Assembly (NCBI GenBank): GCA_964495565.1
Contig: CAZBWQ010000010.1
Location: 3,037-67,036 of the forward strand
Reading direction: 5' to 3'
Source of the DNA: an uncultured Sandaracinaceae bacterium
Lineage (GTDB): Bacteria > Myxococcota_A > Polyangia > Polyangiales > Houyiibacteriaceae
Length of the DNA stretch: 64,000 nt
Shown: in pieces, positions 41,547-56,397 of the stretch
Numbering within the stretch: the stretch's first letter is position 1
Layout of the letters: each line of letters opens with the position of its first letter
Notes under the pieces: generated by a model
The model's input: the letters and a program-made list of their open reading frames with translations, nothing else
Told to the model about the DNA's origin: nothing
Database searches by the model: none
Program-made: the position numbers and the translations under genes

Positions 41547-43938
41547 GGTAGCCTACATTGTTCCTCGGCTCGGGCGGGGTATAGTGGACGGGCTCGCTTT
41601 GCTTGGTCGAAACCGCGCCCGAAACACCGCATGGGTCCTCGTCGTCGCGACGCTGGCTGGCTGTGGCTCCGCCTCGGACACCGGTCCCGGGATGGCCGAA
41701 GGGATCTTCGCCGAGCTCGGCGCCCCGTTGCCGTCGGCGACTCCGGAGGAACGGGCCGCATTCGAGCGGGGCCGTGAGGCCGCCTTGCGCCGCTTCACCC
41801 CCTCGGAGGGTCTGGGGCCCGCCTTCAACGTCACCTTCTGCGCGGGTTGTCACGAAAAGCCCGTCACCGGGGGAAGCGCCAGCCACTACCGCGACTTCTT
41901 GCTCGTCGGCGATGCGCTCACGCCGAGCACGGTGATCCCGCGCGGCCAAAACGGTGTGCAGCAGCAGTTTTCCCTGGGGCTCGGACGGGCCCCCTCCGAT
42001 CCCCTGGCGAACGTGAGCGCGACGCGCAATCCGATTCCGTTCTTCGGCGTGGGCCTACTCGCCGAGATTCCAGCGACCGAAATCTTGCGACGCGAAGATC
42101 CGGACGACGCCGACGGAGACGGCATCAGCGGAAGGGCGAACTACGACGGGAACCTCGTCGGCCGCTTCGGCCGCAAAGCCCAGACCGCGCGCATCGAGCT
42201 CTTCATCCGCGGCCCCCTGTTCAATCACATGGGCATCACCAGCGATCCCTTGAGCATGGAGCGGCGTGCGGAGCTGCCCGGTTCGACCGACACACCCGCC
42301 ACCCCGAACGAAGCGAGCACGCGCGTCGGTGATGGAATCGACGCGGTCGTCGCCGCGCAGGCCGTGATTCCCGACGAGCCGACGGTCGACCTCGACGACA
42401 TCCCGGACCCGGAGATGTCCGAGTCCGAGGTCTTCGACCTGGTGAGCTTCGCGTTGTTGCTCGCGGCCCCCTCCCCCGATGTGCCCACGGCGACTACGGA
42501 ACGTGGGTCGCGCACGTTCGCTCGAATCGGTTGCGACGAATGCCACGTCCGTTCGTTGCAGGGTCCGCGCGGTGCGATTCCGGCCTACACCGATTTGCTG
42601 CTTCACGACATGGGTGACGCCCTCGCGGACGGGTTTCCGATGGGCCGCGCCACGGGCCGCGAGTTTCGCACCCAGCCGCTGTGGGGGATTGGTGCGGTGA
42701 GCCCGTACCTGCACGACGGTCGTGCTTCGACGTTGGACGAAGCGATCCGTTGGCACGGAGGAGAAGCCGCCGTGATGCGCGAAGCCTACGTTGCCTTGGC
42801 TCCCAGCGAGCGCCGGGATCTGCTCGCCTTCCTCGAATCGCTCGGAGGGGCATCGCAAAGGACCGACGGTTTGCTCCCTCCGGACGCCCCACCACCCCTT
42901 GCCGAGGAGCCGGGTGGACCGCTCGAGGGCCTCACTCCCGCGGAGCTCGCCTCGTTCGAGCGGGGAAGACGCTCGTTCGATCGCGATTTTTCGTACCTGG
43001 CGGGGGTCGGGCCCGCCTTCAACGGAGATGCCTGCCGCTCCTGCCACTTCGATCCGGTGCTCGGCGGGGCAGGCCCTTCGGGCGTCGACGTGATTCGGCA
43101 GGGCATCGTGTCGGGGACGTCGTTCGAGGAGCCGAGCGCAGGCACCACGCTCCCGCGACATACCACCTCCGCGGTGCGGCCCGAGCCGGATCCGGCCGCC
43201 AATTTCTTCGAGCCGCGCCAGACGCCTTCGACGCTGGGTCTCGGTCTGCTCGAACGCATACCCCGGGCGACCATCGAAGCGCTTGCCGATCCCGACGACC
43301 GGGACGGCGATGGCATTGCCGGGCGTGCACACGTGCTGCCAGATGGCCGCCTCGGTCGATTCGGTTGGAAGGCGTCCATTCCGACCCTTCGCGAGTTCGT
43401 GCGTGACGCGTTGAGCTCGGAGCTCGGCCTGACGGTTCCCTTCGACGCGAGCTCCTCGTTCGGGCTCGTGGACGACGCCGACCAGGCCGGTGACCCGGAG
43501 GTCGATGCCTCGGTCGTCGATGACCTCGTTGCATTTCTGGAGCTCTTGGCACCGCCACCGCGGGGCTCGATCGACCCCACGGCCGAGCGTGCTGGGGCCG
43601 CGGTCTTCGAGGAGGTCGGTTGCGCAAGCTGCCACGTCCCCTCGTTGAAGACCGCCGATGACGTCGAGGTGCGCGCGTTTACCGACCTGCTCCTCCACGA
43701 CGTCGCACGAGACGACAGCCCGGGCATCGCGGACGGCGCCGCCGGCATGCACGACTTCCGCACGCCTCCGTTGTGGGGTATCGCCCACACCGCTCCTTAT
43801 TTTCACGACGGGCGTGCGGCGACGCTGGAAGATGCGATTGCTGCGCATGCCGGAGAGGCCGCGTCTGCGCGCGACCGAGCGGCTGCTCTCGATCCCGATG
43901 AATGGGCTCTGCTCCTCGTTTTCCTGAGGTCGCTGTGA
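41512..43938 (+). CDS. tandem-duplicated di-haem oxidoreductase (DHOR/DUF1111) lipoprotein, four CxxCH sites
   Basis: CAGCH 41839-41853, CDECH 42532-42546, CRSCH 43033-43047, CASCH 43621-43635. The two ~390-aa halves align (GLGPAFN/GVGPAFN, DPDDADGDGISGR/DPDDRDGDGIAGR, YLHDGRA/YFHDGRA). Lipobox LAGCGS. Start uncertain (41512-41600). Confidence 0.8.
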   Translation: MKRLERISIGTMVAYIVPRLGRGIVDGLALLGRNRARNTAWVLVVATLAGCGSASDTGPGMAEGIFAELGAPLPSATPEERAAFERGREAALRRFTPSEGLGPAFNVTFCAGCHEKPVTGGSASHYRDFLLVGDALTPSTVIPRGQNGVQQQFSLGLGRAPSDPLANVSATRNPIPFFGVGLLAEIPATEILRREDPDDADGDGISGRANYDGNLVGRFGRKAQTARIELFIRGPLFNHMGITSDPLSMERRAELPGSTDTPATPNEASTRVGDGIDAVVAAQAVIPDEPTVDLDDIPDPEMSESEVFDLVSFALLLAAPSPDVPTATTERGSRTFARIGCDECHVRSLQGPRGAIPAYTDLLLHDMGDALADGFPMGRATGREFRTQPLWGIGAVSPYLHDGRASTLDEAIRWHGGEAAVMREAYVALAPSERRDLLAFLESLGGASQRTDGLLPPDAPPPLAEEPGGPLEGLTPAELASFERGRRSFDRDFSYLAGVGPAFNGDACRSCHFDPVLGGAGPSGVDVIRQGIVSGTSFEEPSAGTTLPRHTTSAVRPEPDPAANFFEPRQTPSTLGLGLLERIPRATIEALADPDDRDGDGIAGRAHVLPDGRLGRFGWKASIPTLREFVRDALSSELGLTVPFDASSSFGLVDDADQAGDPEVDASVVDDLVAFLELLAPPPRGSIDPTAERAGAAVFEEVGCASCHVPSLKTADDVEVRAFTDLLLHDVARDDSPGIADGAAGMHDFRTPPLWGIAHTAPYFHDGRAATLEDAIAAHAGEAASARDRAAALDPDEWALLLVFLRSL

Positions 43939-44351
43939 AGCGTGCGGTCGCGATCGCGGTGACGGTCTTCGCGCTGGGGTGCAGCGACGCCGAGCCCAGT
44001 CGAACGGGGCGGCTGCTGGACGCCGAGGGGGGCGTGGTCCTCGAGCTCGAGATCGCCGTCGCCGACACGGAGGAGGCCCGACGCGAAGGCCTGCGTCTTC
44101 ACGGCCCCTTGGGTGCGGACGAGGGCCTGCTTTTGGTATTTCCGGTCGAGGGTCTGGTCTGCATCACCAACGCGGGCGTGCCTTTCCCAATCGACGTCCT
44201 CTACGTGAACGCATCGGGGGTCGTCACCGCCGCCGAGCCCGGCCTGGCGCCCGATGAGCCCGGGCCCTTCTGCCACCGAGCGGCCATGGTGCTCGAGCTT
44301 CCGGGAGGCACCCTGAAGGCCGACAATTACTGGAAACTCGAGCTGTCGTAG
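43935..44351 (+). CDS. DUF192 domain lipoprotein
   Basis: GTGA overlap with the DHOR gene. Lipobox FALGCS. EARREGLRLHGPLGADEGLLLVFP...FPIDVLYVNASGVV is typical of DUF192. Confidence 0.75.
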   Translation: MKRAVAIAVTVFALGCSDAEPSRTGRLLDAEGGVVLELEIAVADTEEARREGLRLHGPLGADEGLLLVFPVEGLVCITNAGVPFPIDVLYVNASGVVTAAEPGLAPDEPGPFCHRAAMVLELPGGTLKADNYWKLELS

Positions 44352-44428
44352 CCCGCGATGGTCTCCTCCGGGCCCTCGGCGAGGCTCGACGGACCGTGCC
44401 GCGAAAACGAAGCAAGCCACACATGCCC

Positions 44429-44457
44429 TTGACCCAAGGCAGCCTTGGCAGCAGAAT
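44429..44457 (+). promoter_or_regulatory. candidate sigma70-type promoter of the ilv-leu operon
   Basis: TTGACC (44429-44434), a 17-nt spacer, then CAGAAT (44452-44457). Sits 10 nt upstream of the leader ATG. The -10 element is weak. Confidence 0.3.
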
Positions 44458-44466
44458 GGGCGCAAG

Positions 44467-44586
44467 ATGGTCCGGAACCCGACGGAGATGGCAGCCGACT
44501 GGGACGCTCGACGGGCGAGCGCGCTGGGCGGCGTAGTAGTCGTAGTCGGCCTCATTATTAGCCTCCTGCTAGTTACTCAGGCATAG
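44467..44586 (+). CDS. Val/Ile/Leu-rich leader peptide of the ilv-leu operon (39 aa; alternative ATG 44488 gives 32 aa)
   Basis: MVRNPTEMAADWDARRASALGGVVVVVGLIISLLLVTQA*. The run uses codons GTA GTA GTC GTA GTC ... ATT ATT ... CTA GTT, which are atypical for this GC-rich genome. Too short for the ORF track. Confidence 0.6.
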   Translation: MVRNPTEMAADWDARRASALGGVVVVVGLIISLLLVTQA

Positions 44587-44637
44587 GCGGGGACCAGGAC
44601 CACCCACAGACCAACCCACTCAGTTTCTGGCCCCCGC
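44587..44637 (+). promoter_or_regulatory. antiterminator helix candidate of the ilv attenuator
   Basis: gcggggaccag (44587-44597) pairs 10/11 with ctggcccccgc (44627-44637). It starts right after the leader stop codon and consumes the 5' arm of the terminator. Confidence 0.55.
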
Positions 44638-44662
44638 ATCGAGGATGCGGGGGCTTTTTTCT
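44630..44662 (+). terminator. rho-independent terminator (attenuator) upstream of ilvB
   Basis: Perfect 11-bp stem gcccccgcatc (44630-44640) / gatgcgggggc (44644-44654), 3-nt loop, then tttttt ctt. Confidence 0.85.
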
Positions 44663-44857
44663 TGGCAAGAACCTCATGAATCAACATACATACCGGAAAA
44701 ATTCAGGCACAAAGCCCTGCTGGGCGATGGCCCAGCTCGCCCCGATCGAAGGTGCCCGGTCATCGCTCGACCCGGCGCCTTTTTCGTTCGAGGCCGCGTG
44801 CTTGAATGCGGCGCCAAATCCACTACGCGCTGCCAGCCAGCATCGAAGGAGACAGTC

Positions 44858-46630
44858 GTGACACCGCCCAATCCCAAGCTCAAGAATCGCATCGGCGAAT
44901 CGCTCTCTGGCGCTGAGATCATCTGGGAGGCGCTGGTACGCGAGGGGGTCGAGGTCTGCTTCGGCTACCCGGGTGGGGCGATCATGCCCGCGTACGACGC
45001 GATGATTCAGTATCCGATCCACCACGTGCTGACGCGTCACGAGCAAGGCGCCTCGCACATGGCGGACGGCTACGCACGCGCGTCGGGACAGGTCGGTGTC
45101 TGCATCGCCACCTCGGGCCCCGGCGCCACCAACCTCGTCACCGGCATCGCCACGGCCATGCTGGACTCGATCCCGATGGTCTGCATCACCGGTCAGGTTC
45201 CTTCGCAGCTCATCGGAAGCGATGCCTTCCAAGAGACCGACATCACGGGCTGCACCCTACCCATCACCAAGCACAACTACTTGGTGACGAAGCCCGAGCA
45301 GATCGCGCCGACGATTCGAGAGGCTTTCTACATCGCGCGCTCCGGCCGCCCCGGGCCCGTCGTAGTCGACATCACCAAGGATGCCCAGCAGCAGAGCTGC
45401 GTGCTCGAGTGGAACGACGAAGAGATCGTCTTGCCGGGCTATCGTCCCGACTACACCCCGCTCGCGGAGCAACTCGAGGAAGCCGTCGACCTCATCAAGA
45501 ATTCCAAGCGGCCGATCCTCTTTGCAGGGCAAGGGGTGATCAAATCCCAAGCCAGCCAGACGCTCATCGACTTCATCGAAAAGACGAACATCCCGGTGGC
45601 CTGCACGCTCCTCGGTCTCGGAGGATTTCCCGCGACCCATCCTCGCAATCTCGGAATGATGGGCATGCACGGCGAAACCTGGGTCAACAAAGCGATTCAG
45701 GATGCCGATTTGATCATTGCAGTCGGCATGCGATTCGACGACCGCGTGACGGGCAATCTCAAGACCTACGCCCCGAACGCAAAGAAGATTCACATCGAGC
45801 TCGACCCTGCGGAGATCAACAAGAACGTTCGTGTCGACGTCCCAATCGTCGGCGACGCGCGCACCGTCTTGCAGGAGCTGCTTCCGCACGTCGACCGCCG
45901 CGACCGGCCCGAATGGTTGGCCTACATCGACGACCTCAAGGGAAATTCGGCGGTCCGTGACATCAAGAATCTCCCCGACCTCGGAAAGCTCTACGCGGCC
46001 CACGTGATCCACGATCTCTACCGCTTCACCGAGGGCAAGGCGCTGGTCGTCACCGACGTCGGACAGCACCAGATGTGGGAGGCCCAGTATTACAAGCACG
46101 ATTACCCGCGGAAGCTGCTCACCTCGGGCGGGCTGGGCACGATGGGCTTCGCGCTCCCTGCTGGGATCGGCGCCAAATTCGCCCAACCCAACGAGTCGGT
46201 GTGGGTCGTGTGCGGCGACGGCGGCTTTCAGATGACGCAAGCCGAGCTCTCCACCTGCGCGCAGGAAGGGATCAAAGTGAACGTCGCCATCATCAACAAC
46301 GGGTACTTGGGGATGGTGCGGCAATGGCAGGAGTTCTTCTTCGGCGGCCGCTACGTCGCGACTCCCTTGCGGAGCCCCGACTTTGTCAAGATCGCCGAAG
46401 CGCATGACTTGACCGGGTTGCGCGTCGAAACTCGGGCTGGGGTCGAGGAAGCGGTTCGGAAGGCAGAAGCGACCGAAGGGACCGTGGTGATCGACTTCCG
46501 AGTGGAGCAAGAGGACTCGGTCTATCCAATGGTCCCGGCCGGCGCGAACCTGCACGACATGATCGAGAGGCCATACAAGCCCGGCGAGCAAGCCCACAAC
46601 CCGATCTTCGAAACCGGGGAGGACGAGTGA
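44858..46630 (+). CDS. ilvB: acetolactate synthase, large subunit
   Basis: GTG 44858 preceded by AAGGAG. GYPGGAIMPAYDA and the TPP-binding GLGTMGFALPAGIGA...GDGGFQM. Confidence 0.92.
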   Translation: MTPPNPKLKNRIGESLSGAEIIWEALVREGVEVCFGYPGGAIMPAYDAMIQYPIHHVLTRHEQGASHMADGYARASGQVGVCIATSGPGATNLVTGIATAMLDSIPMVCITGQVPSQLIGSDAFQETDITGCTLPITKHNYLVTKPEQIAPTIREAFYIARSGRPGPVVVDITKDAQQQSCVLEWNDEEIVLPGYRPDYTPLAEQLEEAVDLIKNSKRPILFAGQGVIKSQASQTLIDFIEKTNIPVACTLLGLGGFPATHPRNLGMMGMHGETWVNKAIQDADLIIAVGMRFDDRVTGNLKTYAPNAKKIHIELDPAEINKNVRVDVPIVGDARTVLQELLPHVDRRDRPEWLAYIDDLKGNSAVRDIKNLPDLGKLYAAHVIHDLYRFTEGKALVVTDVGQHQMWEAQYYKHDYPRKLLTSGGLGTMGFALPAGIGAKFAQPNESVWVVCGDGGFQMTQAELSTCAQEGIKVNVAIINNGYLGMVRQWQEFFFGGRYVATPLRSPDFVKIAEAHDLTGLRVETRAGVEEAVRKAEATEGTVVIDFRVEQEDSVYPMVPAGANLHDMIERPYKPGEQAHNPIFETGEDE

Positions 46631-47172
46631 TGTCGCAGTCCGTCAAGAGAATCTTTGCCGTGTTCGTCGAGGACAAGCCCGGCGTTCTGAATCGCGTCGC
46701 CTCGCTCTTCCGCCGAAGGAGCTTCAACATCGACTCGCTCAACGTCGGCGCCACGCAGGAGCCGGGAGTCTCGCGAATGACCATCGTCTGCGAAGCGGAC
46801 GAGGATACCGCGAAGCGAATCGAAGCGAATCTCTACAAGATGGTCAACGTGCTCTGGGTCGACGACATCACCCACAAGCAGACGATCAGCCGTGTGCTCG
46901 CCCTGATCAAGGTCACCTGCGATCGCGAGCAGCGCGACGAAATCCTGCGGATTTGCGAGGTGTTCCGGGCGCGTGCAATCGACATGTCGCCAGATCGGCT
47001 CACGATCGAGATCACGGGACCGCAAGACAAGGTCGACGGGCTGGTTTCCGTCCTTCGTCCGTTCGGGATCTTGGAGCTCGTTCAGACGGGTACCGTCGCG
47101 ATGACTCGCGGCGCCGAAAAGCACGACCTGGCCCACCCGACGGTGCCAGCCTCCCGCAGCTCAGCGGCATAA
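46630..47172 (+). CDS. ilvN: acetolactate synthase, small (regulatory) subunit
   Basis: ACT domain: RIFAVFVEDKPGVLNRVASLFRRRSFNIDSLNVGATQEPGVSRMTIV. Start overlaps the ilvB stop (tgATG). Confidence 0.9.
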   Translation: MSQSVKRIFAVFVEDKPGVLNRVASLFRRRSFNIDSLNVGATQEPGVSRMTIVCEADEDTAKRIEANLYKMVNVLWVDDITHKQTISRVLALIKVTCDREQRDEILRICEVFRARAIDMSPDRLTIEITGPQDKVDGLVSVLRPFGILELVQTGTVAMTRGAEKHDLAHPTVPASRSSAA

Positions 47173-48213
<1,041 letters not shown>

Positions 48214-48252
48214 GACAGGTGCCGCGATCACGCGGCCCCAGGAGAATGAATC

Positions 48253-49890
48253 ATGCAACCCGACCACGTACGGATCTTCGACACGACTCTCCGTGATGGA
48301 GAGCAATCCCCTGGCGCGACGATGACCTCGTCGGAGAAGCTAGAGGTGGCGAAGACCCTATCGCGGCTGGGTGTCGACATCATCGAGGCTGGCTTCGCGG
48401 CCGCCTCTCCCGACGATTTGCGCGCCGTCAAGAGCATTGCAGAAGCCGTCGGGGTCACGGGAGTCGAGGGGCGGCCGGTGCCGGAGCCCCCGACGATCTG
48501 CAGCTTGGCCCGCGCCCACAAGTCCGACATCGACCAGGCGGCCGAGGCGATCGCGCCGGCCAAGCACGGCCGAATCCACACCTTCCTCGCCACCTCGCCG
48601 ATTCACCGCGAGCACAAGCTCCGGATGACGAAAGATCAGGTGCTCGCCAAGATCACCGAGATGGTGTCGTACGCGCGCAGCCTGCGGGAGGACGTGGAGT
48701 TCAGCCCGGAGGACGCGGGCCGAACCGAGATGGAGTTTCTCTACGAGGCGTTGCAAGCAGCCATCGAGGCAGGCGCCACCACCCTGAACATTCCAGATAC
48801 CGTGGGCTACACGATTCCGGCCGAATTCGGCGAGCGCATCGCGATGATCCGGGAAAACGTACCCGGCATCGAGAATGCGGTGATCAGCGTCCACTGCCAC
48901 AACGATCTCGGCCTCGCCGTCGCGAACAGCCTCGCAGCCGTGCAGAACGGAGCACGCCAGGTCGAGGTCGCCGTCAATGGCATCGGCGAGCGGGCTGGAA
49001 ATGCCTCACTCGAGGAAGTCGTGATGGCGCTCTACGTTCGGGGTGACCTCTACGGAATCGGAACGCAGATCGACACCACGCAGCTCACGCGTGCGAGCCG
49101 TTTGGTGAGCAAGGTGACGGGCATGGTCGTGCAGCCGAACAAGGCGATCGTCGGTGCCAATGCCTTCGCGCACGAAGCCGGCATCCACCAAGACGGGATG
49201 CTCAAGCACGAGGAAACGTACGAGATCATGCGTCCCGAGACGGTCGGTGCTGGCAAGACCCAGCTCGTCTTGGGCAAGCACTCGGGCAGGCACGCCTTCG
49301 CGAACCGTTTGGCCGAGCTCGGTTACCCCGTCTCCGGCGACGGGCTCGACAAGGCGTTTGCGCGTTTCAAGAAGCTCGCCGACAAGAAGAAGTACATCAC
49401 CGATGCCGACTTGGTGGCGCTGGTCAGCGACGAGCTCTACCAGCCGACGGAGTACTGGAGGCTCGACAAGATCCAGGTCGGGTGTGGAACCGGCATGCCA
49501 ACCGCGACCGTACGCCTCGTCGGACCGGACGGACAGACCCGAATCGCCGCGGAGGTCGGCACCGGACCGGTGGATGCGGTTTACAAAGCGATTCAATCGC
49601 TGGTCCACGTGCCGTGCACTCTACTCGAGTACAACGTGCAGTCGGTAACCGAGGGCATCGATGCCCTGGGCGAGGTCAGCGTGCGAGTCATTCCTGGCGA
49701 GCACGATCTCGGTCCGGATCGCATCAATCCCCAGCACGAGCAGTCTCGCGCGCGGGTGTTTCACGGGCATGGCGCACACACCGACATCATCGTCGCGAGC
49801 GCCAAGGCCTACGTCGCGGCGATCAATCGAATTCTCGCCATCCGAGAGGCGACCCAGAAGGAGAGCAAGGCAGCCGGCAGCGCTGCATGA
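48253..49890 (+). CDS. leuA: 2-isopropylmalate synthase
   Basis: [26 protein letters not shown], and a C-terminal LeuA dimer/regulatory domain. Confidence 0.9.
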
Positions 49891-51308
49891 CGACCATCAT
49901 GGAACCACGAACACTATTTCAGAAAGTCTGGGACGATCACGTCGTCGTTCAGGAGGCGAACCGCCCGGCAGTCCTCTACATCGACTTGCATCTGATTCAC
50001 GAAGTCACCTCTCCGCAGGCATTCACCGGCCTTCGCGAGCGGGGCTTGCGGGTGCGACGCCCCGACCTGACGGTGGCGACGATGGACCACTCGACTCCGA
50101 CGCTCCCGAAGTCTCTGTGGGTAATCGACGATCAGGCCAAAGCCCAGCTCGCCCAGCTCGAGCGAAACAGCGAAGAGTTTGGAATCGAGCTGTTCCGGCT
50201 CGGGGACCGCCGCAATGGCATCGTGCACGTCATCGGACCGGAGCGTGGGCTGACGCAACCCGGCAAAACCATCGTGTGCGGCGACAGCCACACGTCGACG
50301 CACGGCGCGTTCGGCGCGTTGGCATTCGGGATCGGAACCAGCGAGGTCGAGCACGTGCTGGCGACCCAGTGTCTGCTGCAGCGAGAGCCGAAGACGTTCG
50401 AGGTTCGGGTGGAAGGCCAACTGATGCCCGGAGTGACGGCCAAGGACATCATCCTGGCGCTCTGTGCCGAGATCGGAACGGGCGGCGCCACCGGTTACGT
50501 CATCGAGTACACGGGCCCGGCCATTCGCAGTCTCGACATGGAGGGTCGCATGACCGTCTGCAACATGAGCATCGAGGCGGGTGCCCGAGCGGGCATGATC
50601 GCACCGGACGACACGACGTTCGCCTATCTGGAGGGACGTGATCGAGTGCCCAAGGGAGCCGATTGGGACGCTGCGGTGGAGCGCTGGCGCAACCTTCGCA
50701 CCGACGATGGGGCGACTTACGACAAGACCGTCGTCATCGACGCCAACAAGCTGGAGCCGATGATCACCTACGGGACGAACCCCGGAATGGGCATGCACAT
50801 CACCGACGCGATGCCGACGGTGGATTCGTTCTCGGATCCTTCCCAGCGGGCCGCCTTCGAAAAAGCGATGAAGTACATGGATCTCGCCCCTGGCGAGCCT
50901 CTGCTCGACAAGAAGATCGACGTGGTCTTCATCGGGTCCTGCACGAATTCCCGCATCGGCGATCTACGGATGGCTGCAGGGGTCATGAGCGGGCGCAAGG
51001 TGGCCTCGGGTGTTCGCACCCTGGTCGTACCGGGGTCTCACGACGTGAAGAAGCAGGCCGAGGCAGAGGGGCTCGACCAGATCTTCAAGGAAGCCGGGGC
51101 CGAGTGGCGAGAGCCCGGGTGCTCGATGTGCATCGCGATGAATGGCGACAATCTCGAGCCGGGCCAGTACGCGGTGAGCACCTCGAATCGAAACTTCGAA
51201 GGCCGGCAGGGCAAAGGTGGACGCACGTTCCTCGCATCTCCTCTGACCGCTGCGGCTGCCGCCGTCACCGGCAAGGTCACCGACCCCCGAAGCTTGCTGC
51301 TCGGGTGA
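49887..51308 (+). CDS. leuC: 3-isopropylmalate dehydratase large subunit
   Basis: ATGA overlap with leu[20 protein letters not shown] and [12 protein letters not shown] (aconitase Fe-S ligands). Confidence 0.93.
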
Positions 51309-51320
51309 GAGAGAATCGAC

Positions 51321-51908
51321 ATGGCAAAGTTCAAGACACTGACATCGCACGCCGTCCCGCTTCCCGCGGACAACGTGGATACGGACCAGATCATCCCTGC
51401 ACGCTTTCTGAAGGTGACGGACAAGCACGGCCTGGGCGACAACCTGTTTTCCGACTGGCGTTATCTCAAGGATGGCTCGCCGAACCCCGATTTCGTCCTC
51501 AACGAGCCCGCGTCGCAGGGGGCTCAGATTCTGATTGCCGGCGACAATTTCGGCAGCGGATCTTCGCGCGAGCACGCGCCATGGGCCCTGGTCGGCTGGG
51601 GATTCCGTGCGATCATATCCACCCGCTTCGCGGACATCTTCAAGAGCAACTCACTCAAGAACGGGCTGCTGCCGGTGGAAGTGAGCCCCGAGGTCCACAG
51701 GGAGCTCATGGAGCGGGTTCAGCGCGATCGCACGACGCAAATCACGATCGACCTGCCCAGCCAGACCGTGAAGGCCGCCGGCGGAATCGAGGCGACCTTC
51801 CCCATCGACGACTTTTCGAAACACTGCCTCCTCGAGGGTATCGATCAGCTCGGTTACCTCTTGTCGTTCGAGGATGAGATCACGCGCCATGAGCAACGAC
51901 GCCCTTAA
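51321..51908 (+). CDS. leuD: 3-isopropylmalate dehydratase small subunit
   Basis: GDNFGSGSSREHAPWAL. Confidence 0.93.
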   Translation: MAKFKTLTSHAVPLPADNVDTDQIIPARFLKVTDKHGLGDNLFSDWRYLKDGSPNPDFVLNEPASQGAQILIAGDNFGSGSSREHAPWALVGWGFRAIISTRFADIFKSNSLKNGLLPVEVSPEVHRELMERVQRDRTTQITIDLPSQTVKAAGGIEATFPIDDFSKHCLLEGIDQLGYLLSFEDEITRHEQRRP

Positions 51909-53517
51909 CGGCTCCGGCCCCGTCGTAGAGATTTACGACACCACGCTGCGCGATGGAACGCAGATGGAGGGCATGAGCCTGTCTTGCGACGACAAGATTC
52001 GAATCGCCGAGCATCTCGACGCGCTCGGTGTCACGTTCATCGAGGGCGGCTGGCCAGGATCGAATCCGAAGGACGTGGAGTTTTTCGAGCGGGCGAAGGG
52101 CATGGCGTGGAAGAACGCGACGATCGCCGCATTCGGGTCGACTTGCCGGGCCCAGCTTCGTCCCGAAGACGACAAGCAACTCCGCACTTTGCTCGATGCG
52201 GAAACGCCGGTCTGCACGATCTTCGGCAAGAGCTGGAACATGCACGTGACCGAAGTGCTCCGCACCACACTCGACGAGAACCTCCGCATGGTGGAACAAA
52301 GCGTCGCATTCCTCGGTGGTCACGGCCGACGTGTCATCTACGACGCAGAGCACTTCTTCGACGGGTACAAGTCGGACGCCGAGTACGCGCTCCAAACGCT
52401 GCGAGCTGCCGCGCGGGGCGGTGCCGAAACACTGGTGTTGTGCGACACCAACGGCGGCTCCATGCCCTGGGAGGTGGAAGCGATCGTCCACGACGTGCGG
52501 AAAGCCCTCCCCGAGGCGAGGCTCGGGATTCATGCCCACAACGACGGGGAGTGCGGAGTGGCCAATTCGGTAGCTGCCGTGCGGGCTGGAGCTCATCACG
52601 TGCAAGGCACGGTCAACGGCTACGGAGAGCGCTGCGGCAATGCGAACCTGTGCTCGATCATTCCGGACGTGGAGCTCAAGCTGGGCCTTCGGTGTCTGCC
52701 CGAAGGAGGCCTTCGTCAGCTCTACGATCTCGCGCATTTCGTCGCGGAGATCGCCAATTTGAATCCGAACGATCATGCCGCGTACGTCGGACGCAGCGCG
52801 TTTGCCCACAAAGGAGGCGTGCACGTCTCGGCCATTCGGCGGCATCCGGAGTCGTACGAGCACGTCGACCCGGCTCTCGTCGGCAACTCGTCACGGGTCG
52901 TGGTGAGCGAGCTCTCGGGGCGCAGCAACGTCCTCAGCAAGGCCGAAGAGCTCGGGCTGCAGGTCAGCTCGGATCACGGTGGACGGGTGCTCGAGAAGAT
53001 CAAGGAGCTCGAGGCCAAGGGGTTCGCATACGAGGCTGCCGAGGCTTCGGTCGCGCTCCTGATGGCGCGTCAGCAGGCCGACTACGTACCGCCATTCGAG
53101 GTGCTCGATTTCCAGGCGAGTGTCGGGCGGCGACGCGGTGGCGGGATGTTCGCCGAGGCCACGGTCAAGGTTCAGATCGGCGACGAGGTGGTGCACACCG
53201 CGGGCGAAGGGAATGGCCCCGTGAGCGCGCTCGACTCTGCGCTCCGCAAGGCGCTACGGCCGTCCTTCCCTCGAGTCGCGGACATTCACCTGAGCGACTA
53301 CAAGGTGCGAATTCTCGACGGCCACAGCGGGACGGGCGCGACTACCCGAGTCCTCATCGACAGCCAGTCGGAGCACGACACATGGAGCACCGTCGGCGCT
53401 TCGAGCAACATCATCGAGGCTTCGCTGCAAGCCTTGATCGATAGCATCGAGTATGGGCTCAGGTTGCAGGGTGCCAGGGACGAAAAGGGCATTCCCGAGC
53501 ACGCTCCGCAGACTTAG
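51889..53517 (+). CDS. cimA: citramalate synthase (LeuA-paralogue, CimA type)
   Basis: IYDTTLRDGTQMEGMSLSCDDKIRIAEHLDALGVTFIEGGWPGSNPKD matches the CimA-type N-terminus. Start at 51889 or 51874, and either overlaps the leuD end. Confidence 0.75.
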   Translation: MSNDALNGSGPVVEIYDTTLRDGTQMEGMSLSCDDKIRIAEHLDALGVTFIEGGWPGSNPKDVEFFERAKGMAWKNATIAAFGSTCRAQLRPEDDKQLRTLLDAETPVCTIFGKSWNMHVTEVLRTTLDENLRMVEQSVAFLGGHGRRVIYDAEHFFDGYKSDAEYALQTLRAAARGGAETLVLCDTNGGSMPWEVEAIVHDVRKALPEARLGIHAHNDGECGVANSVAAVRAGAHHVQGTVNGYGERCGNANLCSIIPDVELKLGLRCLPEGGLRQLYDLAHFVAEIANLNPNDHAAYVGRSAFAHKGGVHVSAIRRHPESYEHVDPALVGNSSRVVVSELSGRSNVLSKAEELGLQVSSDHGGRVLEKIKELEAKGFAYEAAEASVALLMARQQADYVPPFEVLDFQASVGRRRGGGMFAEATVKVQIGDEVVHTAGEGNGPVSALDSALRKALRPSFPRVADIHLSDYKVRILDGHSGTGATTRVLIDSQSEHDTWSTVGASSNIIEASLQALIDSIEYGLRLQGARDEKGIPEHAPQT

Positions 53518-53573
53518 TGATTGCCCTTCCGGCGTGCCACGTGCATGATGGCGCGCCCCGTAGGTGACCAGAC

Positions 53574-54650
53574 ATGAAAGCAAAGATCACACTCTTGCCT
53601 GGCGACGGAATCGGCCCGGAAATCGTCGATGCGACGCGCCAGGTGCTCGAAGCCATCGAGCGCAAGTCGGGACACACATTCACTTTCTCCACGCATCTCA
53701 TCGGAGGGATCGCCATCGACGAAACCGGCGTGGCGCTGCCCGACGACACCATCGTCGCGTGTCGCAGCTCTGACGCGGTGCTTCTGGGCGCGGTGGGCGG
53801 ACCGAAGTGGGACGATCCCACCGCCGAGGTTCGGCCGGAGCAAGGCTTGTTGGGCATGCGCAAGGCGTTGAAGCTCTTCGCCAACGTGCGGCCGGTCAAG
53901 CTTTTTCGAGGGCTCGAGGGTGCATCTCCCCTGCGACCGGAGCGGTTGCGGGGAGTCGACTTGGTGTTCATTCGCGAGCTCACCGGAGGCATCTACTTCG
54001 GCCAACCAAAGGGCAAAGAGGTTCGCAACGGGCTCCGCACCGGCTTCGACACCATGATTTACGACGAGAACGAGGTTCGCCGAATCGTGCAGCTCGCGTG
54101 CGAGGTAGCCAGGAAGCGCCGGCGCAAAGTGACCTCGATCGACAAGTCGAACGTGCTCGCGACCATGCAAGTGTGGCGGGAGGTGGCCAATGAGGTCGCG
54201 CGAGAGAACCCCGACATCACGTTGGACCATCAGCTCGTCGACTCGGCTGCGATGAGGCTCATCACCGAGCCTTCCTCGTTCGATGTGATCGTGAGCGGCA
54301 ACATGTTCGGCGACATTCTCTCGGACGAGGGCGCGGTCCTCACCGGCTCCCTCGGCCTGCTTCCGAGCGCATCGCTCGGCGAAGGAAAGCTCGGAGTGTA
54401 CGAGCCAATTCATGGATCGGCCCCGGACATCGCGGGCAGAGGAATCGCGAACCCGCTCGGCACCATTCTGAGCGCAGCCATGTTGCTCAGGCACAGTCTC
54501 GATCTCGACGAAGACGCCAGGACCATCGAGGGCGCAGTACAGAAAGTCCTCGACAACGGCCTTCGCACTGCGGATCTCAGTGGCGGCCAGCGTTCGCTCG
54601 GAACCACCGAAATGGCGCATGCGGTCATCGCCGCGATCGAAGGCGCTTGA
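53574..54650 (+). CDS. leuB: 3-isopropylmalate dehydrogenase
   Basis: KITLLPGDGIGPEI and GNMFGDILSDEGAVLTGSLG. Confidence 0.95.
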   Translation: MKAKITLLPGDGIGPEIVDATRQVLEAIERKSGHTFTFSTHLIGGIAIDETGVALPDDTIVACRSSDAVLLGAVGGPKWDDPTAEVRPEQGLLGMRKALKLFANVRPVKLFRGLEGASPLRPERLRGVDLVFIRELTGGIYFGQPKGKEVRNGLRTGFDTMIYDENEVRRIVQLACEVARKRRRKVTSIDKSNVLATMQVWREVANEVARENPDITLDHQLVDSAAMRLITEPSSFDVIVSGNMFGDILSDEGAVLTGSLGLLPSASLGEGKLGVYEPIHGSAPDIAGRGIANPLGTILSAAMLLRHSLDLDEDARTIEGAVQKVLDNGLRTADLSGGQRSLGTTEMAHAVIAAIEGA

Positions 54651-54663
54651 GGAAAGGACTTCC

Positions 54664-56397
54664 ATGCCCCGCAAACGCGTCAGTCGGTTGTTTGACCTGA
54701 AGGAAGACGAACGTGGCCGCAAATACATGGAGGTCTACCTCGATGGCATCGCGCTGCTTCGTCTGGTGCTGACCAACAAGGGCACCGCGTTCAGTTACGA
54801 GGAGCGCGTAGCGCTACGTTTGGAAGGTCTTCTGCCGCCCCAATTCAACACGCTCGAGCAGCAAATCGATCGCGTCTACGAGGGCTTCGTGCAGGCCCCT
54901 ACCGACATCGACAAGTATCAATACCTTCGCGCCGTGCAGGAGCGCCAGGAAATTCTGTTCTATGCGCTTCTCGAGAAGCATCTCGAAGAAATGCTCCCGA
55001 TCGTCTACACGCCGACCGTCGGCGCGGCGGTTCAGCAATTCAGCGCGCTCTACCAAAGCCCCCGCGGGCTTTCGATTTCACCGTTGAACATCGATCGGGC
55101 GCCGCTCGCGCTCGATTGCTATCCGATGGAAGACGTCCGCATGATCGTCGCGACCGATTCCTCGGCCATCCTCGGGATCGGCGACCAGGGTTACGGCGGC
55201 CTCGCGATTCCCATCGGAAAGATGGCCCTCTACACGGTCGCAGGAGGGGTGAGCCCCTTTCACACGATGCCCGTCGCCTTGGACGTGGGGACCGACCGGA
55301 TGGACCTGATCAGCGACTACAACTACTTGGGCGTGAGGCAAAAGCGTCTCCGAGGCGACGACTACTACAAGTTCTTGGATCGCTTCGTCGACGCGGTTTG
55401 GTCGCGCTGGCCCGATGCGGTGATTCAGTGGGAGGACCTTTCGAAGACCGCCGCGTTCAACGTGCTGGAGCGGTATCGGGACCGCGGACCGTCCTTCAAT
55501 GACGACATTCAAGGCACCGGCGCGGTGGCTTTGGCTGGGATTCTGGCCGCTTGCCATCTGCGCGAGGAAAGCTTGCGCGATGAAGTGTTCGTGATTCACG
55601 GGGCCGGAGCCGGCGGCATCGGTGTGGCGTGGGCGATTCGTGAAGGGCTCGTGCGCGCGGGGCTCAGCCGAAAAGAGGCGCAAGCGCGCGTCTTCGTCCT
55701 GGATTCGGGTGGCCTGCTGCTCACCGATCGCGACATCGAAGAGTACAAGAAGGCATTTGCACACGAACGCGAGGCGGTTCGAGGCTGGGAGTTCGCGGGC
55801 GACAGCCCGGACCTGGTGGAGACGATCCGCAACAGCAAGGCAACCGCCTTGTTGGGTCTCTCGGGAAGGCCGGGTGCCTTCGACGAAGAAGTCGTACGCG
55901 CCATGGCGGAAAACCACAAGTGGCCGATCATCTTCCCGCTTTCGAACCCCACGAGCTCGGCCGAAGCGAAGCCGGTCGACATCTTCCGCTGGACTGACGG
56001 CCAGGCGATCGTGGCCACTGGAAGCCCTTTCGAGCCGGTGATGATGGGTGGCGTGACCCACCCGATCGGCCAAGGCAACAACGCCTTCATCTTTCCCGGG
56101 TTGGGCTTCGGCGCGATCCTGAGTGATGCGAGGTCGATCACCGATGGGATGGTGCTCGAGGCATCCCAGGCCCTGGCCGACTACACGATCGAGAAGTACG
56201 TGGAGGGCGGTCTCATCTATCCACCGGTGAGCGATCTCCAGGAAACCTCCGTTCGCGTCGCGACACGCGTGGTGCAGCAAGCGATCGAGGACGGAGTCGC
56301 CCGGCGCGAGAACATTCCCGAAGACGTCGAGTCCTTCGTCCGCAGCCGCTTCTGGCGACCCACCTACCTCCCCTTCGTCCGCGGCCACCTCGACTAG
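54664..56397 (+). CDS. maeA: NAD-dependent malic enzyme
   Basis: NKGTAFSYEER, VYTPTVG, FNDDIQGTGAV, GAGAGGIG. ATG 54664 chosen, 13 nt after the leuB stop. Confidence 0.85.
   Translation: MPRKRVSRLFDLKEDERGRKYMEVYLDGIALLRLVLTNKGTAFSYEERVALRLEGLLPPQFNTLEQQIDRVYEGFVQAPTDIDKYQYLRAVQERQEILFYALLEKHLEEMLPIVYTPTVGAAVQQFSALYQSPRGLSISPLNIDRAPLALDCYPMEDVRMIVATDSSAILGIGDQGYGGLAIPIGKMALYTVAGGVSPFHTMPVALDVGTDRMDLISDYNYLGVRQKRLRGDDYYKFLDRFVDAVWSRWPDAVIQWEDLSKTAAFNVLERYRDRGPSFNDDIQGTGAVALAGILAACHLREESLRDEVFVIHGAGAGGIGVAWAIREGLVRAGLSRKEAQARVFVLDSGGLLLTDRDIEEYKKAFAHEREAVRGWEFAGDSPDLVETIRNSKATALLGLSGRPGAFDEEVVRAMAENHKWPIIFPLSNPTSSAEAKPVDIFRWTDGQAIVATGSPFEPVMMGGVTHPIGQGNNAFIFPGLGFGAILSDARSITDGMVLEASQALADYTIEKYVEGGLIYPPVSDLQETSVRVATRVVQQAIEDGVARRENIPEDVESFVRSRFWRPTYLPFVRGHLD

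Follow-up and report, generated by a model that had tools for sequence, protein, structure and literature searches.

A probable leader-peptide attenuator upstream of the ilvB operon in an uncultured myxobacterium

Transcription attenuation by a ribosome translating a short leader peptide is a textbook form of control over branched-chain amino acid (BCAA) genes. In the ivbL and ilvL leaders of Escherichia coli, a ribosome that reaches the stop codon brings about termination, and a ribosome that stalls within the leader permits read-through. Here we analyze a candidate attenuator of this kind in front of ilvB in a 64,000-nucleotide stretch of DNA (the window) from an uncultured Sandaracinaceae bacterium of the phylum Myxococcota. 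The element comprises a leader open reading frame (ORF) rich in Val, Ile, and Leu (V/I/L) codons, an intrinsic terminator (T1), and a competing antiterminator. An original prediction, made from the window alone, had read it as a classical ribosome-mediated attenuator with the architecture of ilvBN and ilvGMEDA. A conserved ORF with conserved codons, mutually exclusive helices, and a U-run lend strong support to that reading. The source organism is known from metagenome-assembled genomes (MAGs) only, and all evidence presented here is computation at the level of sequence.

Several described leaders offer points of comparison. Attenuation of ilvB by E. coli ivbL is cited in PMC10272879. Leaders upstream of ilvB were predicted in Actinobacteria in 2005 (PMC1262725). 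For ilvB1 of Mycobacterium tuberculosis, experiments support the attenuation model, and both a short terminated transcript and footprints of ribosomes were detected (PMC13236596). The Corynebacterium ilvB-II motif has been shown to contain a conserved upstream ORF (uORF) and to regulate a reporter (PMC10272879, PMC11857589), and the same attenuation model has been proposed for it (PMC10272879). The ilvB-OMG and Leptospira ilvB motifs of the Breaker laboratory have been reinterpreted as uORF attenuators (PMC10272879). No account of an ilvB attenuator from myxobacteria came up in our literature search, which did not cover the survey of bacterial attenuators by Lopatovskaya et al. 2010 (Mol Biol 44:128) with its possible predictions for delta-proteobacteria. 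The locus described here would extend leader-peptide attenuation to Myxococcota, a phylum usually discussed in terms of its protein regulators.

The leader ORF and its promoter

We consider it likely that a ribosome-mediated leader-peptide transcription attenuator controls the ilvBNC-leuA-leuCD-cimA-leuB operon of the window. The leader ORF lies on the forward strand at 44467-44586 and consists of 39 codons and a TAG stop, with the predicted peptide MVRNPTEMAADWDARRASALGGVVVVVGLIISLLLVTQA. Thirteen of its final 20 residues are V/I/L. This is the highest V/I/L count per 20 residues among 467 ORFs of 20-80 amino acids in the six frames of the window, the runner-up reaching 10. A regulatory block on the forward strand at 44533-44574 (GTA GTA GTC GTA GTC GGC CTC ATT ATT AGC CTC CTG CTA GTT) holds 12 V/I/L codons, and Leu20 (44524-44526) lies upstream of it.

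The codons chosen within the leader are unusual for this region. Seven of the 13 V/I/L codons are GTA (three times), ATT (twice), CTA, and GTT. In eight neighboring genes, GTA and GTT make up 4.6% and 6.5% of Val codons, CTA makes up 2.1% of Leu codons, and ATT makes up 19.7% of Ile codons. Each of these seven leader codons thus represents only 2-20% of its synonymous family in the neighboring genes. The GC content of third codon positions (GC3) follows the same division: it is 0.81 in the neighboring genes and 0.86 in leader codons 1-22, but 0.47 in leader codons 23-39.

Conservation was assessed in a clade of Myxococcota genomes and metagenome contigs around 'Myxococcales bacterium SG8_38'. 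The closest public genomes are all from uncultured Myxococcota, with IlvB identities of 94% for SG8_38 and 87-90% for six other MAGs. Eight genome sequences, the window and seven MAGs, were aligned from the promoter to ilvB (alignment A1). A metagenome scan with a 25-nucleotide (nt) pattern from the regulatory block added 52 more loci. Genome and metagenome loci together gave 54 distinct leader sequences, and a larger alignment (A2) comprises 49 sequences. Promoter, ATG, regulatory block, TAG, both alternative helices, and U-run are present in 54 of the 54 distinct sequences, and the ATG and TAG are invariant.

Selection on this leader appears to act on more than the peptide. The VVVVVGLIISLLLV block is kept in all 54 sequences with minor substitutions only, and its rare codons are kept with it. 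In the 49 aligned sequences the regulatory block is almost invariant at the nucleotide level, synonymous sites included. Conserved synonymous sites point to a constraint on codons or RNA, beyond the peptide alone. The N-terminal half of the peptide, by contrast, drifts freely and holds the indels. Leader length among the 54 sequences is 39, 40, 42, 43, 49, or 59 codons, and every indel is in frame. The linker that forms the loop of the antiterminator (44600-44624, forward strand) is C/A-rich, G-poor, and unstructured; it measures 24, 27, 28, 29, or 30 nt between the antiterminator arms, with indels that are not multiples of three. In-frame indels in the ORF against variation by 1-2 nt in the linker are the signature of a translated ORF beside an untranslated spacer. 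By the pattern of its indels, therefore, the leader ORF appears to be translated.

Two further features were seen within the leader. Loci L003 (2540-2813), L114, L083, and L086 carry extra copies of a 15-nt tandem repeat that specifies five residues (within the peptide stretch DSLRVDALRVDALRV). These copies lie in the N-terminal half and extend the 39-codon leader, always in frame, to 49 or 59 codons. Midway through the leader, at 44505-44520, a small GC hairpin can form from GCUCG/CGAGC in the window and from CGCG/CGCG in relatives, with some G-C, G-U, and U-G variation. It could conceivably serve as a polymerase pause hairpin.

The peptide itself is absent from current protein resources. At permissive thresholds it matches no family in NCBIfam or Pfam, which leaves it without detectable homology to IvbL or IlvL. 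The leader peptide of the window's clade was missing from a protein collection with about 15 billion predicted entries, in which one distant homologue was present, annotated as 'hypothetical protein'.

The transcript is likely to begin very close to the leader ORF. A consensus scan returned two promoter-like sites in 1.4 kb, against 0.0 expected from shuffled sequence. A sigma-70-type promoter on the forward strand (44429-44457) has the -35 hexamer TTGACC (44429-44434), a 17-nt spacer, and the -10 hexamer CAGAAT (44452-44457). The pattern TTGAC[CG] with CA[GC]A[AC]T is kept in 54 of 54 distinct sequences, with a 17-nt spacer in all but one, where it is 18 nt. From the end of the -10 box to the leader ATG there are 9 nt in the window; the distance among relatives is 9 nt in 42 sequences, 6 nt in nine, and 8 nt in three. 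The bases in between are not conserved. The relatives have no conserved Shine-Dalgarno (SD) sequence ahead of the leader ATG, where the space for one is lacking. Transcription usually starts 6-8 nt after the -10 box. The 5' end of the leader transcript would then lie 0-3 nt ahead of the AUG. With only 6-9 nt between the -10 box and the ATG, and with no SD sequence, the leader ORF is probably leaderless or nearly so. This would be a probable case of leaderless translation of a leader peptide outside Actinobacteria.

Much of this agrees with the original prediction. It had described a 39-codon V/I/L-rich mini-ORF at these positions, and our translation is the same, including the 13 V/I/L residues among the last 20. 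Its remark that A/T-ending codons stand out against GC3-rich flanking genes is borne out by the GC3 values. The TTGACC-17-CAGAAT promoter it named was recovered independently by the consensus scan. It had also called for a comparative search for a conserved V/I/L mini-ORF upstream of ilvB, and that search found the ORF and the helices kept throughout the 54 sequences.

Competing helices and the proposed switch

Two helices compete for a shared RNA strand downstream of the leader ORF. T1 (44629-44660, forward strand) consists of a stem (44629-44640:44644-44655), a GAG loop, and a U-run (44655-44660). Its stem has 11 perfect pairs (44630-44640:44644-44654), or 12 if G44629-U44655 is counted, and T6 follows; the consensus scan picked it out as well, at 44629-44655. 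T1 is present in every relative that extends that far, and its stem is never broken. The 5' arm of the antiterminator (region 2; 44587-44599, forward strand) starts at the base directly after the TAG and pairs with 44625-44637. Within it, GCGGGGACCAG (44587-44597) pairs at 10 of 11 positions with CTGGCCCCCGC (44627-44637), and the helix extends to 44599/44625 through G-U and A-U pairs. The strand common to both structures is region 3, UUCUGGCCCCCGCAUC (44625-44640, forward strand). Its positions 44625-44637 form the antiterminator's 3' arm, positions 44629-44640 form the 5' arm of T1, and the two arms overlap at 44629-44637.

The alignment of 49 sequences shows how closely this pairing is kept. 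At the antiterminator columns (208-220:248-260), 99.0% of cells are paired, compared with 33-62% when the arms are slid by 1-3 columns. A compensatory double change from G-C to A-U is found in two distinct sequences, L082 and L109. Region 3 otherwise varies only from C to U, which preserves pairing with the G of both partners. This is the pattern expected of a strand under two pairing constraints. The element thereby offers a natural example of RNA strand evolution under dual constraint, and of the rarest synonymous codons serving as putative sensors.

A third helix involves the end of the leader ORF itself. In the RNAalifold consensus, a 1:2 hairpin (44561-44588, forward strand) pairs GCCUCCUG (44561-44568) with CAGG (44578-44581) and AGGC (44585-44588). 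The stop codon falls within it, and its overlap with region 2 is limited to the first 2 nt of that arm. At one of its pairs (columns 186:202), 38 sequences have C-G, six have U-A (a compensatory change), and three have U-G. A long-range helix between the start region and the end of region 2 (44468-44473:44597-44602) also appears in both the minimum-energy fold and the RNAalifold consensus. Its covariation was too weak to rely on.

Folding energies and ribosome geometry are consistent with a switch between these structures. The free energy of the terminator is -24.7 kcal/mol and that of the antiterminator -19.9 kcal/mol. Any nascent RNA bounded by a stalled ribosome on its 5' side and cut off short of arm 4 has the antiterminator as its minimum-energy structure, which matches the classical kinetic scheme. 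We then applied the footprint model used for M. tuberculosis ilvB1, in which 26 nt are centered on the decoded codon (PMC13236596). With the ribosome at the stop codon, the computed footprint is 44572-44598 and takes in nearly all of region 2. With the ribosome at the last V/I/L codon, GTT at 44572-44574, it reaches 44586 only. A ribosome at the Val run (44533-44547) or at the Ile/Leu codons would leave region 2 fully free. By this geometry, a ribosome at any of the 13 V/I/L codons would favor read-through, and termination would be favored from the last few codons only.

The original prediction fared well here too. The 10-of-11 pairing that it placed directly after the stop, and the perfect 11-bp terminator with T6 overlapping the pairing segment, were both found as described. 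The folding check that it suggested for the leader RNA returned the antiterminator when arm 4 was absent. It had further proposed that a ribosome at the stop would mask the antiterminator arm and that one at V/I/L codons would leave it free, and the footprint geometry fits this proposal.

These features suggest the following course of events. From the TTGACC-17-CAGAAT promoter, transcription would begin only a few bases away from the ATG, and the 39-codon leader would be translated in leaderless or nearly leaderless form. With charged Val, Ile, and Leu tRNAs in good supply, the ribosome would reach the TAG (44584-44586) and cover region 2 (44587-44599). With region 2 covered, regions 3 and 4 would pair, the terminator would form, and polymerase would stop near 44660. 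When charged tRNAs are scarce, the ribosome would stall in the 12-codon V/I/L block (44533-44574), many of whose codons are the rarest of their synonymous families. Region 2, left free, would pair with region 3 (-19.9 kcal/mol) while region 4 is still to be made, which would preclude the terminator and give read-through. If the leader is not translated at all, the 1:2 hairpin and a possible long-range helix to the start region may hold region 2 in part, with termination as the default. For this holding role, the 1:2 structure offers one compensatory pair and a 2-nt overlap with region 2, and the long-range helix is weakly supported. In this scheme we infer, rather than observe, stalling, the footprint geometry, the transcription start site, and the response in vivo.

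Distribution across Myxococcota and alternative explanations

The logic of the switch extends beyond the clade of the window. In most of the Myxococcota loci recovered with IlvB, a V/I/L-rich mini-ORF and then a terminator lie upstream of ilvB; Sorangium cellulosum also carries a V/I/L mini-ORF at this place. The distant leader peptides are unrelated to that of the window, ending for example in IVVVVVTLALGLISSGAAAS in Polyangiaceae MAGs and in VVVGLLLGLVLLPLISLGCGPPT in Myxococcaceae. In these distant clades the final codons of the ORF, GGGUGCGGCGGCC or a close variant, are complementary to the 5' arm of the terminator, GGCCCCCGCACC. Folding of distant loci covered 11 of them, and the others were judged by eye. 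When folded without arm 4, 10 of the 11 form this tail-to-arm helix, with z scores of -2.1 to -4.3 against shuffled upstream sequence. An independent compensatory change from G-C to A-U was found in the distant-clade antiterminator of locus L024. The stop codon lies just before region 2 in the window's clade and just after it in the distant clades. Since V/I/L mini-ORFs and tail-to-arm pairing recur with unrelated sequences, the predicted switch logic is common across Myxococcota while the sequences differ.

As a control, most ilvB loci of Acidobacteriota and Chloroflexota in the same search lack such ORFs. Separately, five loci from Acidobacteriaceae/Sulfotelmatobacter MAGs (L041, L059, L063, L066, and L068) share another conserved mini-ORF (such as MNNLYLHRIRVVVLGVGVFIPSPVWREPAS), located some 90-120 nt ahead of the ilvB match. 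This may be an independent acidobacterial ilvB leader peptide. Yet another mini-ORF, ending in LVSVGVVVRVLGDNSSG, is found upstream of ilvB in L046 and L047.

Several points weigh against control by stalling at V/I/L codons. The terminator is more stable than the antiterminator, and the outcome therefore hinges on the kinetics of co-transcriptional folding. With helices so nearly invariant in the clade, antiterminator covariation there is confined to one position, changed in two distinct sequences. Long-range pairing of the start region with 44590-44602 could compete with the antiterminator even when a ribosome is stalled. The second hairpin located downstream, described below, means that read-through of T1 may not suffice for expression of ilvB. 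In Streptomyces coelicolor, mutations of the candidate regulatory codons in a similar ilvB leader were reported to be without effect (PMC1262725). Architecture alone is thus no proof of mechanism.

Some of these same points would favor an attenuator that is real in its architecture but constitutive or global in its control, answering to translation capacity, polymerase speed, or guanosine tetraphosphate (ppGpp) and not to stalling at V/I/L codons. Such control, which has been suggested for the S. coelicolor ilvB leader, would explain the unchanged regulation after codon substitution there, and it sits well with a terminator stabler than the antiterminator and with a long-range helix that could sequester region 2 regardless of stalling. 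It does not account for a V/I/L block whose rare synonymous codons stay near-invariant while the rest of the peptide drifts, nor for the V/I/L richness retained by unrelated leader peptides in other Myxococcota. The placement of every V/I/L codon out of ribosome reach of region 2, with the stop codon within it, speaks against global control as well, and we regard this explanation as unlikely.

A switch that works without a ribosome can be imagined from the 25-nt linker (44600-44624), which is C/A-rich, G-poor, and resembles a Rho-utilization (rut) site, and from the ppGpp riboswitch that governs ilvB in some bacteria (PMC10272879). The element would then be a riboswitch, a T-box, a protein-binding element, or a Rho-dependent element loading Rho at the C-rich linker as this is exposed or hidden. 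An Rfam 15 scan of 43500-45500 at E-values up to 10 gave only chance-level terminator-like matches, however, and five distant myxobacterial loci gave no match at the gathering threshold. The linker is also short and variable, other Myxococcota clades have a different spacer, the in-frame indel pattern indicates a translated ORF, and a canonical intrinsic terminator with U6 is present. Taken together, these make ribosome-independent switching very improbable. The least probable reading is that of an independent small gene, encoding a hydrophobic membrane peptide or a type I toxin-like peptide, that lies upstream of ilvB by chance. The C-terminal half of the leader peptide, LGGVVVVVGLIISLLLV, does resemble a transmembrane segment, the ORF has its own promoter and strong terminator, and an annotation pipeline has called the distant homologue a 'hypothetical protein'. 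But linkage to ilvB persists across Myxococcota despite differing peptides, and the peptide matches no protein family. The conserved synonymous sites and rare codons point to constraint on RNA or codons, and a segment at the ORF end or just beyond it can pair with the terminator arm and shows compensatory changes. We retain leader-peptide attenuation as the most probable explanation of the element. Without a match in Rfam, NCBIfam, or Pfam, and with the clade's ORF missing from the protein collection, the element is one that current annotation misses.

The operon, a second module, and comparison with described systems

The genes downstream form a co-directional run that would be placed under the attenuator. 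NCBIfam assignments identify ilvB, ilvN, ilvC, leuA, leuC, leuD, cimA, and leuB at 44858-54650 of the forward strand. The IlvB protein matches TIGR00118 with 764 bits, from residue 16. Its gene starts at a GTG (44858-44860, forward strand) with the SD sequence GAAGGAG (44845-44851) just upstream, and both are invariant among relatives. The consensus scan found no terminator-like site on the forward strand within the ilvB-leuB run. After leuB, a malic-enzyme gene follows on the same strand and ends at 56397; it is possibly part of the operon. Upstream of the leader lies a DUF192 gene that ends at 44351. The original prediction had spoken of a 12-kb ilv-leu operon. The operon stands, but its size is 9.8 kb, or 11.5 kb with the malic-enzyme gene.

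The gene content also bears on isoleucine synthesis. The operon contains cimA (citramalate synthase; 51874-53517) and lacks ilvA and ilvD. This suggests that isoleucine is made via the citramalate route and co-regulated by the same attenuator. For myxobacteria, which make natural products from BCAA-derived precursors, the attenuator would be an obvious site for deregulating BCAA supply.

The original prediction had also placed the attenuator in front of ilvB with read-through passing into the operon. Its position upstream is upheld, but read-through does not lead straight into ilvB: the approximately 200 nt between T1 and ilvB are taken up by another conserved element. This second module, specific to the clade, consists of an ORF (ORF2) of 61 codons on the forward strand (44676-44861) and a hairpin within it. 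ORF2 has a conserved ATG, and its TGA overlaps the ilvB GTG as GTGA (44858-44861). Its start is A-rich and largely made up of rare codons, with 67% of the first 11 codons ending in A or T. From the ORF2 ATG to the ilvB GTG there are exactly 182 nt in 36 of the 39 distinct sequences that reach ilvB. Two exceptions, L126 (3 nt shorter) and L120 (57 nt shorter), are both in frame. The element is lost in L085, and L081 is also without it.

Hairpin 2 is terminator-like (44750-44784, forward strand), with a stem-loop at 44750-44780 and U5 at 44780-44784. It is GC-rich, its free energy ranges from -11 to -26 kcal/mol, and seven of its 12 pairs show compensatory changes among 36 sequences. It is missing in L120, L085, and L081. 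We considered whether it might be a dispersed repeat or mobile element and rejected this, as the window holds one copy only. In L085 and L081, ilvB lies within about 25-35 nt of T1. That both lack ORF2 and hairpin 2 marks the second module as accessory.

Reading-frame openness is the conserved property of ORF2. The frame is open through hairpin 2 and U5 in 37 of 37 distinct sequences with the hairpin, and L120, which lost the hairpin, has an early stop. Across the alignment, frame 1 contains three stops, all at codon 57 after the hairpin, compared with 126 and 40 in frames 2 and 3. Before the end of hairpin 2, no codon column of frame 1 carries a stop, and the other frames have five and eight such columns. 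The encoded peptide shows no comparable constraint. Entropy is flat over the three codon positions (0.62, 0.60, and 0.64), and L126 switches frame for the 3' part of ORF2 yet terminates at GTGA all the same; on these two observations a conserved small protein was rejected. The ORF2 peptide matched nothing in NCBIfam or Pfam. As judged from these alignments, the openness of ORF2 matters and its peptide does not. Upstream of hairpin 2, V/I/L codons are scarce in it: their share of codons 2-24 is 4.8%, compared with 15% for the other frames and a base-composition expectation of 13.9%.

Between hairpin 2 and the ilvB SD sequence, blocks at 44803-44835 (GCTTGAATGC, AATCCACTA, and GCCAGCCAGCA) have near-invariant nucleotides and no codon periodicity, and a small GUUGG/CCAGC hairpin is possible there. 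A second promoter in the boxes of this segment (TTGAAT through ACTAGTTGG) was considered and dropped, since by eye there is no acceptable -10 hexamer and no sigma-54 spacing. Gating of the ORF2 start by the state of the attenuator was likewise rejected. Its accessibility, taken as the mean unpaired probability of the AUG with 12 nt on either side in 36 sequences, was 0.61 when the antiterminator was enforced and 0.62 when the terminator was.

We hypothesize that translation of ORF2 probably suppresses hairpin 2 and couples ribosomes onto the ilvB start. A frame kept open without a conserved peptide, and the depletion of V/I/L codons ahead of the hairpin, would be indirect support for suppression by a coupled ribosome. 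Transcripts that read through T1 would meet ORF2, which would be translated across hairpin 2 and end on the ilvB start codon. On the same hypothesis, its poverty in V/I/L codons would let the second module work during BCAA starvation. More tentatively, the locus could be a two-stage device in which a probably leaderless V/I/L attenuator is followed by an ORF2 translated through a second intrinsic terminator, with GTGA on ilvB; we put this forward as possible but less likely than not. If true, the operon would be expressed only when BCAA shortage is sensed and a ribosome follows the polymerase, and the second module would offer a natural setting in which to study how coupling of transcription and translation serves as a regulatory checkpoint. 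Our literature search found no description of stalling-activated and coupling-dependent attenuators in tandem.

For the second module alone, the nearest counterpart is pyrBI of E. coli. There, a leader ORF spans an intrinsic terminator, and a ribosome close behind the polymerase is required if the hairpin is not to form (PMC5021804, citing Roland et al. 1988). ORF2 similarly spans hairpin 2 and its U-run, as the PyrL ORF does in pyrBI. It differs in having no evident nucleotide-sensing pause sites and in sitting downstream of a classical attenuator. The probable leaderless arrangement of the first ORF has a parallel elsewhere: the title of Morbach et al. 2000, as cited in PMC10272879, describes the Corynebacterium glutamicum ilvB leader peptide as made without a ribosome binding site.

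The attenuator itself has relatives in design in several systems. Like the ilvB-OMG and Leptospira ilvB motifs, it is a conserved RNA upstream of ilvB with in-frame start and stop codons and a BCAA-rich peptide, and those motifs too are thought to be attenuators. Its sequences and structures are lineage-specific, and it matched none of the curated families in the Rfam 15 scan, which was not confirmed to include either motif. With M. tuberculosis ilvB1NC and the actinobacterial leaders it shares a BCAA-rich uORF, a Rho-independent terminator, and an antiterminator that would be masked by a ribosome at the stop. It belongs to another phylum, however, is unrelated in sequence, and has 13 regulatory codons with striking use of rare codons in place of the four-codon 'LVVI'.

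The likeness to E. coli ilvBN (IvbL) and ilvGMEDA (IlvL) covers the design as a whole: an ORF rich in BCAA codons, an exclusive antiterminator and terminator, and a U-run, all before acetolactate synthase genes. There is no relation to them in sequence or family, and the leader here appears to be leaderless. The operon also adds leu genes and cimA, and a second module, apparently translated, stands before ilvB. By its architecture, the element fits none of the curated families scanned (Rfam, NCBIfam, and Pfam) and is a myxobacterial version of the known ilvB leader-peptide attenuator.

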